Part shown: piece by piece, positions 9,018 to 30,480 of the stretch
Layout: each line of letters opens with the position of its first letter
Position numbering within the stretch: position 1 is the first letter of the stretch
Assembly (NCBI GenBank): GCA_964648855.1
Contig: CAZYLT010000002.1
Coordinates: 1 to 32,000, forward strand
Origin: an uncultured archaeon
GTDB lineage: Archaea; Asgardarchaeota; Thorarchaeia; Thorarchaeales; Thorarchaeaceae
Direction of reading: 5' to 3'
DNA length: 32,000 nucleotides
The notes under the pieces: generated by a model
The model's input: only the letters and a program-made list of their open reading frames with translations
Told to the model about the DNA's origin: nothing
The model's database searches: none
Position numbers and translations under genes: made by a program

Positions 9018-9284
9018 ATGGCAGAGAGCAAATCAAAAATCAAGAGCCACATGGAAAAGCGGTTCAAAGAGATTAAAGAAGAGAAACGATTGCCTCCGAG
9101 AGTTCAGATTGAACTGGAGAATAAGGTCACAGACTTGGATATCACCAAGAAAGAATTTGATGCCATTTGTGAGAACGTGATTGAGTCTTACGAACGCTCA
9201 CTGGTTGAGCCAGGTGAGGCTGTAGGCACGGTAGCTGCGCAAAGCATCGGAGAACCGGGCACACAGATGACGCTCAGGACATAA
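9018..9284 (+). pseudogene. rpoA2: orphan 5' portion (exon 1, 88 aa) of RNA polymerase subunit A''
   Basis: At the native operon position after rpoA1, with an SD. Ends [24 protein letters not shown]-stop, exactly at the intron position of the downstream copy. No matching 3' exon follows. Confidence 0.85.
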
Positions 9285-12200
9285 ACAAAGCATTCCAAAT
9301 TGCTCTTCGCGTCTCTATTCTCTTCATATTAATGAAGAACAAATGGCTTGGACCCCGCGTTATAATAGCACTACCATTTTCAGCTATAGGAAACGGTCAA
9401 ATTCCTAATGAAACACCAAGGCGAAATGAACAGGCCCTAGGATAATGTAGTTGATGAATACCATGATCTGCTTCTAATAACTCGCAAACGATAGTGCAGA
9501 ACGTTGCTTAGTGAACATAAGACCTTCTTCTTGTGCTGGTCATCAAAAAGTGGCAACTCGTTGTGCCGGTTGCGATGATGAAAACACCATTCCGTGCATA
9601 TGATGCTTTTATTCATGTATTGTATGCATATGGTTGGTATTTCAATTCGTCAAATAGCTCTTTATCCCCAAACCGCTCATTACGATGTTATGAGTTCTCA
9701 GAACCACTGAGGGTATACCTTTAGTATCATTGTAACCAACACAATCCACAGAGGTTAATCTATCAATGACTCCTGTGTGTAAACTCTCCGTAATCTCCTT
9801 GATTTTCCCAAGTCCACCCTTAGACTTGGGATTATTGTGCCTTTTTAGACACAATCTGGACAAATTGAAGAGAAAATAATGCACCCGAGTGGAAACTCTG
9901 TCGGCTTATCTCAGGACAATGAGAGGGGGCTTTCATTTGGATAGGAATACAAATGCGGAACGAACTCTATTTGAACTTCGTGCTAGTCATGAATCAGTTT
10001 TGCTACTGGTTCGGTTGGTTTTGGCAGACTCCTCCATCAAGAATATGGAGTGATTACTATGAGAAAGCTCCGAGAATTCAATGAACAAGGTGATAAGAGA
10101 AGCAAATTGGAACGCCTCAAAAGGAATATCCACTCTTGTATACTGACGGAAGAGGAAAATCTTGCATTACTTGACGAGCATAGCCGAGAAGAGAGTGTAC
10201 CAAGTTACAGGCAAGACAGAAAAGAGGGTGAGTCAACTGGTCAACATAATGAGATACGAGAAGTCACAGATCAGACTGCAAGCAAAATCAAGGCACAATT
10301 AACAGATGGCAGTGACTCGTTCTATTATTCAGAAGTTGAATCTAAAGGAGAGCTAGAAAAAGAGCCTTCAATATCAGAAAATTTCACACGAATTAGAACA
10401 CAAGACGATCCGACCATGACTCGCCTGTTGAATAATACCATTATATCAAAAACAAATGAACGCATTAGAATATCTATTCCTAATCCTCTGGGAGGATTCA
10501 CAATTGAGCTAGATGGCAGTTCCATTGAAATTGATGAAACAATAAGCGAAAAGAAGATTCGCGATATTTTTAGAAAGGCTCTACACCAATGCGACCTGAC
10601 ATATCGAAAGAGGAAGCGAGGCGGTTCCTACTATGTCTATAACAACGGCCTCTTTGATATCCACGAACAAGAGTATTTGCAGGAATCCATGTCCACAGTG
10701 CTCAGACTACGACATTCTTATTTCAAAACTGTTGAATCCATATTAACTAGTAAACCACCATCATTTCTAGGTAATCACTGGGGCTCATCACTCTATTCGC
10801 TTTTGGTTGAACCATTAGAAGGAATTCCTTCAGACCTTCAAAGCAGACTTTATGCAGACTTTGTGAATTCACTTCGTTTGGCAATCAAAAAATCAAGGAA
10901 TGAGCCTGCGTCGTTATCAATAGAGAATCTGTCTCATGACGAGTTAGTAGAATTCGCCAGTTCGTATTCAGAAGAAGATGAAATACTACATAAAAACGAA
11001 TTCTATTCCCAATTATCCCGGTATGAAGAGCCGGAAATAGTCTCGTTGAAGAATCAGGGAATCTTCTCGATTAATGAGGTGTTTGAAGATTTGTTGGATT
11101 CATTCATCCGCCCTTCTAACTCCCCATTTGAAGAGTCCTTATTGGATGAACTTTCCTCTTCCTTTCTGGACCGCCAATTGTCAGCATTATCATCTTGGGA
11201 ACGAGCTTTCGGAGATTCACCAAATTCAAAAAGAAGCAATTTCATCTTACGAGCCTTCAACATGGAAATGTCTTGGACAATAAGCATTCTACTGAGTGCA
11301 TTTTTCCTAAGAAATCGGGATTTTGCGCAATATAGATTCATCTCGGAATCTGAGTGGCTGAATAACAGTCCGCAGGACTGTTGGGCAATTATAAAAAGAC
11401 GCATTGCGAGGTTCTTGAGAGCAGAATGGAGAGATTGGGTTAGAAATCCGGTTGATATGCGTGGTGTGCTAGAATTTGAAACACGTTCACGTTTCAATGC
11501 GTTAGGTGCATATAACGACTTCTTGTTATCAACAAAAGAGGGTTCCGACCTACTTAGTCCATCTAACCTCACTTCCTTTTCTAAGGCAGATAGGAATGTC
11601 CGAAAGAAGATACTTGAACAGGCTTGCTCGACTCATCGCATATTCAGAAAAGAGGTTTTTGACCCATTCATCCAGCATAAACTTTCAGAGAGCAAGGCCA
11701 TTACGAAGTGGTGGCATTTGATGAATCAAAAGCCAGAAAGCTATATTGGCTTCACCATAATGCGGGCATGCCACGAGGGCTATAGAGAGTTTGTAGCAGT
11801 TTATGTGCCCAACCAAGGTGTTTGGATTTCCGGCAGAAAAGAAGAATCAAACTGGACCCCGATTGGCAATATGGGAATTGGGCAAGGCAAAGGAAATAGT
11901 CGCAGTGCTGCGAGTTCTGACCATTGGTCTTCATTTCATCGAAATACCACTTATGGACTTCCTCGAGCATGGTATTTCTCGGAAAACGATAGCGGAAAGT
12001 TCCACGTCGATTTCTTAGCGATGGCCTATCCACTTGCAGAAGCTCTGTTTACAGCCAAGGACTTACACGATGCTGAGAAAAGGCTTGCCGGCCCGAAAGA
12101 ACGAAGGTTGATTCAAAGTTTCTTCGCAAAAGACCGAAAGGAAGACTCTCCATCAGTTGGTGAAATGGTCCTTGTATCGGCTGATTCACTTGTATCGTCC

Positions 12201-29936: not shown

Positions 29937-30234
29937 ATACCCTATTTATCGCCTATCTCTATAAATACTCCGAGGAAAAACGAACGAAAATATAAGCACA
30001 ATCAATTGGTCGATGAGAATAGGAAAACAACAAAGCTTCTACTGTGATGCATGTACTCTGGTAAACTCAACATGTTCCTGATGATATTGCAGAGGTTGCA
30101 TAATTATCTGGCACACCTGTTTCTATAAGAAAACCCTCATTCACAGGAGCTACCCACTCAGCCTGCGGTTGACATGTTGACCCTTTTTATGCCCGTCCTA
30201 ATGGACAAACTGCCGGTTTCATTAAGAATGCGGT

Positions 30235-30480
30235 TCCTCTATCTGCACATGCGTCAGAATCCAGCTATCCAAAAACGGCAAGCAGGTGACCGCTTTTATC
30301 CCAGGCGACGGCGGCCTCAAGTATATTGACGAACACGACGAGGTCATCATCGAGGGAATCGGTGGAGCCACAGGCGGAGCAATGGGTGATCTGCCGGGTG
30401 TCCGGTTCAAAGTGGTGAAGGTAAACGGTGTGGGCTTAGACTCGCTCATCTACGGACGGGCTGAAAAGCCAATCAGGTAG
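30235..30480 (+). pseudogene. rps12: 3' fragment of rps12, copy 3 (degenerate SSICT, then [11 protein letters not shown] to stop)
   Basis: Colinear with the 3' part of 16705-17148; no start codon or N-terminus. Confidence 0.92.

Follow-up and report, generated by a model that had tools for sequence, protein, structure and literature searches.

The question raised by this locus is why two essential genes that stand close together each carry a partial copy of themselves, separated from the working gene by unrelated DNA, in what look like mirror-image arrangements. The locus lies on contig CAZYLT010000002.1 (C2) of an uncultured Thorarchaeaceae archaeon (assembly GCA_964648855.1, 3.1 Mb, 94.6% complete; here G000), and the window analyzed is the 32,000 nucleotides (nt) at positions 1–32,000 of that contig. 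The gene order is rpoB (2910–6344), rpoA1 (6346–9003), rpoA2, rpl30e, nusA, and rps12. The 5′ part of rpoA2, which encodes the trigger loop of the RNA polymerase (RNAP) subunit A″, is duplicated upstream of the working gene, and the 3′ part of rps12, which encodes ribosomal protein S12, is duplicated downstream. A first-pass annotation, made from the letters of the window, proposed one family of elements for both genes. The comparison of the window with a genome of the same genus (G001), a related contig (L046), and other Asgard genomes and metagenomes favors a different explanation, to which we give a probability of roughly 0.6. In this explanation, rpoA2 carries a mobile element with a putative mini-intron of the bulge-helix-bulge (BHB) type, and rps12 has independently undergone integrase-free replacement of its tail. 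The two-locus layout is present in contigs from four runs of one microbial-mat study, and the rpoA2 layout has been found again in unrelated assemblies. Therefore, the layout is not an assembly artefact.

The duplication of the 5′ part of rpoA2 upstream of the gene, together with cargo, was described correctly in the first-pass annotation. Self-tblastn identifies two 5′ copies, at 9018–9281 and 14534–14794, with 74.7% amino acid (aa) identity over 83 aa. The duplicated part comprises the first 87–88 codons, and both copies end at the identical base of the trigger loop and are followed by TAA. The 3′ part of the gene (exon 2, 14826–15745) begins TT CAC TAT (F-H-Y), is present in a single copy genome-wide, and shows 98% aa identity to G001. 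Between the two 5′ copies lie 767 nt of non-coding DNA and one open reading frame encoding a 1418-aa protein (10050–14306). All of these features are on the plus strand. In G001 and L046, rpoA2 is uninterrupted. The upstream 5′ copy matches the intact G001 gene at 92% (aa) and 88% (nt), while the downstream copy is only 76% identical to it and does not exceed 76% aa identity to any sampled native copy. Therefore, the upstream copy (9018–9284 with its stop codon) is the stranded native exon 1, and the downstream copy (exon 1 of the working gene, 14534–14795) arrived with the insert. The two copies are not purely silently recoded versions of each other, as had been claimed. They differ at 25% of residues, and synonymous-only difference is limited to the invariant motif. 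Such divergence is the expected pattern for alleles that have evolved apart under purifying selection.

The borders of the insertion are given by sequencing run X4, in which occupied and empty rpoA2 alleles coexist and differ exactly at the insertion site. One X4 contig joins position 9282 straight to 14826, skipping 5543 nt with the ends AA..TA. The mobile element is thus 5,543 bp long (9283–14825, plus strand) and is composed of the 767-nt leader, the gene of the 1418-aa protein, a spacer, its own exon 1, and the mini-intron candidate. The depth of the empty-site contig is 18.6, that of the element-bearing contigs is 17.6–21.4, and that of the common upstream contig is 34.9; X4 contig joints are to be read with the caveat that, at low likeness, they may derive from other organisms. 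The upstream contig common to both argues that the element-plus and element-minus forms are variants of one population. The empty site (surrounding sequence AGGACATTTCACTAT) reads ACA T|TT CAC, the Thr-Phe-His of the trigger loop, and there is no target-site duplication. The stranded exon 1 ends at 9282, the first base of the Phe codon, and its TAA consists of T9282 and the first two bases of the element. In the leader, the part at 9544–9875 is common to other contigs of the same metagenomes, where it has loose ends and extra depth. A 40-nt piece of it is found twice more on C2, and this part of the leader may be a small repeat. A 7-bp hairpin is located near the left end of the element (9321–9338).

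The element belongs to a small family with a fixed target. The constant module, formed by the 1418-aa ORFan, a diverged rpoA2 exon 1, and the 30-nt hairpin insert, was found in about seven genomes or contigs of Thorarchaeota, each time at ACA T|TY CAC. The earlier suggestion of an element family that targets an invariant motif thus holds for rpoA2, with about seven instances at one codon, but not in its wider form of a single family at both genes. The 1418-aa protein has four other full-length homologs among 5.8 billion clusters, with 39–42% identity. A profile search of 1.8 billion representatives returned only the protein's own family, adding two partial members (P0006 and P0007) and no distant relatives, which brings the family to seven members among about 15 billion proteins. 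The genomic context was read at five loci, a count to which the partial members do not belong, and at all five the ORFan adjoins an rpoA2 exon-1 copy and the insert. The full-length homologs in G022, L040/L041, L042, and L043 lie directly upstream of the exon-1 copy, which is followed by a 33-nt in-frame interruption and exon 2. Further upstream in G022, L040/L041, and L043, a stranded native exon 1 ends in the same codon (within 1 nt); the L042 stretch examined ends before the position where it is expected. The cargo to the left of the ORFan is wholly different between elements, and no cargo gene besides the ORFan is common to them. One of these carriers, L040, has an IS605-type OrfB/TnpB gene pair (L040:14997–16213) between rpoA2 exon 2 and rpl30e.

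A reduced element is found in G007. Its only rpoA2 keeps the interruption, and the ORFan, the cargo, and the second exon 1 are all absent. The spacer upstream of exon 1 in G007 is homologous to the element spacer of L043, which identifies the locus as a reduced element, and because the insert is kept without the ORFan, host factors suffice to handle it. The pattern TAA-N6-ACATTTCGT-N6-TGTG occurs in three of the 400 Asgard genomes searched, once in each and always within rpoA2. A pattern scan of metagenomes added one variant, L060, and its remaining matches are due to chance.

How, then, can an essential gene be expressed with such an insert? The working copy of rpoA2 is itself broken by 30 nt with in-frame stops (14796–14825, plus strand), and taking these out restores ACA TTT CAC (Thr-Phe-His). 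The insert follows the same plan in all seven variants: CGCACA-UAA, an 8-nt arm, AUUUC, a second 8-nt arm, UGUG, WWA, and UY-CAC. Five of the eight variable stem pairs have changed on both sides, 98.6% of the cells are paired, and none of 500 shuffles is as good. In L060, a U-A pair replaces the single C.A mismatch of L040. The occurrence of U.G pairs indicates that the sense strand is the folding strand.

BHB introns are defined by a pair of 3-nt bulges, one on each strand, with 4 bp between them (bioRxiv 10.64898/2026.10.13.758758), and the tRNA splicing endonuclease EndA cleaves between the second and third bulge nucleotides at both sites (PMC12397907). The G000 insert has this canonical topology in a register in which helix H is formed by GCAC (14790–14793) and GUGU (14820–14823), with AUA (14794–14796) and UAU (14824–14826) as the two bulges. 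The inner stem of 9 bp (14797–14805 and 14811–14819) is closed by the loop AUUUC. This register is also the minimum-free-energy fold for G000. The EndA rule puts the cuts at 14795/96 and 14825/26, that is, exactly 30 nt apart and at the borders of the DNA polymorphism. The predicted spliced product reads ACA UUU CAC, with the junction CGCACAT|TTCACTAT. The exon codons CGC ACA, which contribute to helix H, are invariant in the carriers and vary in about two dozen intron-less alleles. The host genome encodes two EndA paralogs (PF01974; C6:63923–64177 and C4:31164–31424) and one RtcB (PF01139), and the two paralogs fit the broad-specificity (alpha-beta)2 type of most Asgard genomes (bioRxiv 10.64898/2026.10.13.758758). 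The fold, the covariation, and the fixed exon bases suggest that the 30-nt insert is probably spliced out as a relaxed BHB mini-intron. As a separate observation, the loop AUUUC (14806–14810) is complementary to a downstream GAAAU (columns 14823–14827) in five of the six aligned variants, G000 being the exception. This pairing could give a pseudoknot that overlaps the bulge of the 3′ splice site.

Several features weigh against such splicing. The outer pair of helix H is G.A in five of the six aligned variants, and the motif is relaxed there. The exon-exon helix h is weak, with either two adjacent pairs or 5–6 bp beyond a loop of ~10 nt. An alternative register, CACA/UGUG, has four Watson-Crick pairs and looks at least equally good; cuts placed by it would remove 28 nt and retain the UAA. 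Also, the invariant loop ACAUUUCGU, a copy of the native ACAUUYC, is not required by EndA, and a BHB intron does not explain it.

Expression without splicing has also been considered. Read-through of the stop codon is excluded by a second in-frame stop within the insert, which is UAG in G000 and UGA in G007. Translational bypass was rejected as well, since there is no landing codon matching ACA before CAC and a landing on the ACA in the loop meets the same UAG or UGA in these two genomes. A further option is that A″ is synthesized as two chains with the break in the trigger loop, the N-terminal piece ending at the UAA and the C-terminal piece re-initiating at AUU or AUC just before the His. 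Evolutionary splits of large RNAP subunits are common, and in every variant the UAA stands straight after the Thr codon. In AUY, the A is likewise invariant, but AUU and AUC are poor start codons, and neither G007 nor G022 has an AUG, GUG, or UUG close to where exon 2 begins. A Shine-Dalgarno-like GGUG or GUGAU can be read from the sequences 7 nt upstream in most variants. On the other hand, the chain would be cut one residue before the catalytic His, and a split subunit offers no role for the stem covariation, the fixed exon bases of helix H, or the exact bulge geometry. A split A″ is therefore considered unlikely.

The hairpin could instead act at the level of DNA, as the right end of a single-strand transposon of the IS200/IS605 or rolling-circle style, with the 1418-aa protein as the transposase and the BHB likeness secondary or coincidental. 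The hairpin is subterminal, 7 nt from the end, and its loop copies the target ACATTTC, which would suit such an element, but only the right-end hairpin is conserved between elements and the left ends are not. Precise insertion 3′ of a fixed sequence, without target duplication, is also in keeping with this kind of element, the G.T pairs favor folding of the top strand, and the hairpin near the left end could be counted in its favor. However, library scans of the element proteins found no HUH, TnpA, or TnpB signature. Moreover, the single rpoA2 of G007 has the insert although the protein is absent, so that expression still needs an RNA- or translation-level solution. We regard a transposon end of this type as quite improbable.

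Searches of Pfam, NCBIfam, PHROG, and the PDB sequences (including a PDB profile search) gave no match for the 1418-aa protein, and they returned no nuclease domain and no signature of a known homing endonuclease family. An AF2 (AlphaFold2) model of residues 365–1415, based on a 5-sequence alignment, has a pLDDT of 43.8. The VIA-align search with this low-confidence model gave only helical-bundle noise (Z ≤7.2), and the ESM Atlas look-up gave nothing above 0.79. An ORFan with no recognizable nuclease, whose structure could not be modeled, speaks against assigning it the cutting step. Only the position of the ORFan suggests that it may act as a nuclease or in mobility. For the rpoA2 element as a whole, it is reasonable to consider an intron-like or homing-like unit.

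At rps12, the layout proposed in the first-pass annotation is real, but there are four displaced 3′ relics and not one. Two are located in the window, where self-tblastn places them at 23528–23791 (aa 60–147, 93%) and 30226–30477 (aa 64–147, 90%), and two lie outside it, at C2:34846–35043 (aa 78–147) and C2:36200–36271 (24 codons, abutting rps7). The live gene (16705–17148, plus strand) is a mosaic. Its nt 1–180 are native, with 88.3% identity to L046 and 90.0% to G001, while nt 181–444 (from about 16885) belong to a foreign allele, whose identity to L046 is 95.8% (98% in windows) and that to G001 86.4%. Relic 1 (23528–23794, plus strand) begins at about nt 183, is G001-like over its whole length, and has 84.7% nt identity to the live gene. 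Therefore, a foreign 3′ end and 6.4 kb of cargo were inserted at about nt 181, and the native rps12 tail was displaced 6.4 kb downstream. The older relics begin at about nt 200–225, 232, and 372. In terms of residues, the newest relic starts at the PNSA codons and the others at about aa 67–75, 78, and 124. The claim that both breakpoints fall in conserved motifs is thus correct for the trigger-loop codon of rpoA2, but at rps12 it applies to the newest relic only. The region of the live gene and its flank (16918–17274) matches relic 2 and its flank (30250–30606) at 83%, and the 126-nt downstream flank of relic 2 (30226–30480, plus strand) is homologous to that of the live gene. The oldest relic, relic 4, still stands directly in front of rps7 and is common to G001 and L046. 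In other genera, rps7 comes directly after rps12.

The DNA between the relics encodes an S8 peptidase, SBBP beta-propeller proteins, and ABC transporters, as assigned by Pfam. Cargo block 1, the newest (17149–23527, plus strand), contains the genes of a 101-aa protein (17321–17626), the S8 peptidase (18622–20478), and a 908-aa SBBP beta-propeller protein (20603–23329). Cargo block 2 (23795–30225) is of mixed strand and contains a paralog of the 101-aa protein (23802–24107, minus strand), a 675-aa SBBP protein (24632–26659), and ABC transporter genes on the minus strand. Cargo block 3 starts at 30481, carries ABC-2 transporter genes on the minus strand up to the end of the window at 32000, and continues beyond it to relic 3 and relic 4. 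The segment 24380–29372, with the SBBP protein and the ABC transporter genes, is 98.3% identical to G001, compared with about 87–91% for core genes. The identity of this 5-kb block points to a recent transfer between species. The 675-aa SBBP gene is flanked by a 112-nt direct repeat (24083–24194 and 26851–26962, 92.9% identical). The repeat corresponds to the 101-aa paralog's 5′ end plus the sequence upstream of it, which makes it another partial-gene duplication beside an inserted gene.

No dedicated recombinase has been found for these events. Pfam scans of the cargo proteins detected no recombinase or integrase in any block, and the 94.6%-complete genome has no PF00589 match, as opposed to 14 of 14 control genomes; serine recombinases were not searched genome-wide. 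There is also no constant att core, since the relic starts differ. Against this, erosion of the relics could mask an originally common breakpoint, and the route of break and copy proposed below for rps12 is derived from end states.

The genome-wide self-search confirmed that other fragment-cargo pairs exist, with 3′ relics at tuf (two relics), an ADI-like gene, and a TauE gene. The tuf locus (L044, C2:40767–45571) consists of tuf, three small open reading frames, a 32-codon relic (44563–44658), a 103-aa paralog of the 101-aa protein on the minus strand, and a 134-codon relic (45163–45564) that has 98.5% aa identity but only 87% nt identity. On contig C1 (L045, C1:412118–423033), stranded 3′ fragments of two non-essential genes are nested. 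The relic of the ADI-like gene (412118–413065) is located at 422636–423033 and that of the TauE gene (414039–414803) at 422111–422320, with ~8 kb of cargo in between that includes a WD40 protein. As a result, the pattern is not limited to essential genes.

The 101-aa family has four paralogs, all on C2 and adjoining the 3′ ends of rps12 or tuf, and it is confined to this genus-level group. The 101-aa gene was considered as a simple marker of a mobile unit and rejected. In L046, which lacks the recent cargo, members of the family are resident convergent neighbors of rps12 and tuf, bracketed by old relics. The fold of the 101-aa protein is predicted with confidence (pLDDT 86), but no match was found by Foldseek (E >0.03) or VIA (Z ≤5), and its Pfam hit to Imm1 (E 0.0076) is under the family cut-off.

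These observations bear on whether rpoA2 and rps12 are parts of one system, that is, whether one homing-type family cuts an invariant motif in each gene, the trigger loop in rpoA2 and the PNSA loop in rps12, and provides a recoded replacement at both. The insertion point is the edge of the duplicated part in both genes, and the layouts are formally mirror images. Nevertheless, a comparison of proteins, repeats, and hairpins found nothing common to both loci, and the breakpoints vary by event at rps12, where the same pattern extends to non-essential genes. The distribution in other genomes gives the same picture. Co-occurrence of the two was not seen. The 1418-aa protein is found only at rpoA2 and the 101-aa family only at rps12 and tuf, while the hairpin motif, once per carrier genome, is confined to rpoA2. 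The rps12-rps7 junction is clean and free of cargo in five further carriers of the rpoA2 insert, of which four have the full element and one has the reduced remnant, and L046 has rps12 and tuf relics with an intact rpoA2. Paralogs of the 101-aa protein stand beside four of the rps12 and tuf 3′ ends, which could mean a hidden factor common to rps12 and tuf and counts in favor of a single family. Still, a single family is very improbable. Since nothing is shared and the two do not co-occur in other genomes, rpoA2 and rps12 represent two independent systems, and their likeness is formal, in that each insertion sits at the border of the duplicated stretch of its gene. The alternative that rpoA2-rpl30e-nusA-rps12 and their flanks were gained as one foreign unit, for which nothing speaks beyond the nearness of the two loci, is almost certainly wrong, because the identity profile is flat. 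From rpoB up to the 5′ part of rps12, every gene is 86–93% identical to G001 and L046, and the only departures are the element exon 1 (76% to G001, with no match in L046) and the 3′ end of rps12 (96–98% to L046).

In the proposed mechanism, DNA would enter each of the two loci at one point in a conserved gene and bring its own copy of the part beyond that point. The mirror-image layouts would then arise from two independent insertion processes for the same formal reason. At rpoA2, the element would enter between the first and second bases of the trigger-loop Phe codon (ACA T|TT CAC), stranding the native exon 1 upstream and leaving a working gene composed of the element exon 1, the 30-nt insert, and the native exon 2. 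The 30 nt would be cut out by the host two-subunit EndA and the exons ligated by RtcB, restoring Thr-Phe-His. The spread of the element is probably homing-like, with a break at the empty site repaired by copying the carrier allele, and the ORFan is the candidate nuclease. At rps12, a break in the 3′ half would have been repaired at least four times by copying the 3′ end of a foreign allele together with its downstream genes, and likewise at tuf and the two non-essential genes. The old 3′ end would be rejoined behind the new DNA, which is why the relics stack with the newest beside the live gene, and the replacement would run without a dedicated recombinase. Both processes may share a route in which one side of the break copies a foreign allele by homology and the other side is closed by end joining; an insertion at the border of the duplicated part is what this route would be expected to leave.

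A broader version of this idea is decidedly unlikely. Asgard archaea would have a general integrase-free system of gene capture by break and copy, in which site-specific nucleases cut invariant codons of essential genes and repair copies an uncuttable foreign allele along with cargo. The 1418-aa ORFan may then cut the rpoA2 trigger loop, the 101-aa family may perhaps act at rps12 and tuf, and the BHB mini-intron may shield the uncuttable rpoA2 allele. In that case, the locus would exemplify a way for BHB introns to enter genes.

Two further features of the window lie outside these loci. In a tRNA gene on the minus strand (2180–2283), the anticodon loop contains an insert of ~32 nt that is presumably a BHB intron, and the gene receives no ARAGORN call. 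A tRNA-Lys(UUU) is located on the plus strand (2645–2722), with an Rfam alignment that is only partial.

If splicing is confirmed, the archaeal protein-coding genes with a tRNA-type intron would number only about three, and rpoA2 would be the first with one in the catalytic center of RNA polymerase, in the archaeal lineage closest to eukaryotes. A mini-intron physically linked to a mobile element whose presence varies within a natural population would also offer a testable arrival route for BHB introns. The 2026 census of Asgard tRNA introns gives no general arrival route for them (bioRxiv 10.64898/2026.10.13.758758). The rps12 and tuf stacks, if confirmed, would represent integrase-free capture of foreign surface-protein and transporter genes behind essential genes, and would bear on gene exchange among Asgard genomes, one block being 98.3% identical between species.

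The rps12 and tuf stacks resemble two known systems. Integrative elements target and restore the 3′ ends of tRNA and ribosomal-protein genes and build tandem arrays of islands. Similarly, the rps12 and tuf tails are swapped for element-borne copies, the old tails form direct repeats, and the islands stack. Unlike in those elements, the blocks contain no integrase, the genome has no PF00589 match, and the breakpoints vary with no constant core site. Polymorphic toxins such as CdiA and Rhs have arrays of orphan C-terminal cassettes, and here too displaced 3′ fragments, each accompanied by a small gene downstream, stand behind a full gene, and recombination occurs in the conserved part. The genes in question encode ribosomal protein S12 and EF-1alpha, however, not toxins, and the replaced tails encode nearly the same protein.

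The rpoA2 element can be compared with mobile introns. Mobile archaeal rRNA introns carry homing endonucleases, and in the collaborative homing of cyanophage psbA a free-standing endonuclease acts together with an intron. As in these systems, plus and minus alleles differ exactly at the splice borders (predicted ones in this case), a large open reading frame travels along, and the target is an invariant motif. The differences are that the reading frame lies outside the mini-intron, upstream of the duplicated exon, and has no LAGLIDADG, HNH, or GIY-YIG signature, and that one flank has been joined without homology, stranding the native exon. BHB introns in archaeal protein-coding genes have been described in the cbf5 pre-mRNA of Crenarchaeota and in HVO_1309 of Haloferax (PMC2738675; PMC10485636). 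Like these, the rpoA2 insert is a short mRNA intron candidate with a relaxed BHB motif, predicted to be removed by the tRNA splicing endonuclease and RtcB, in a host with a two-subunit EndA. Unlike them, it lies in the trigger-loop gene of RNAP A″ in an Asgard lineage, its splicing is a prediction, and the putative intron forms the edge of a 5.5-kb mobile element that brings a duplicate exon 1.

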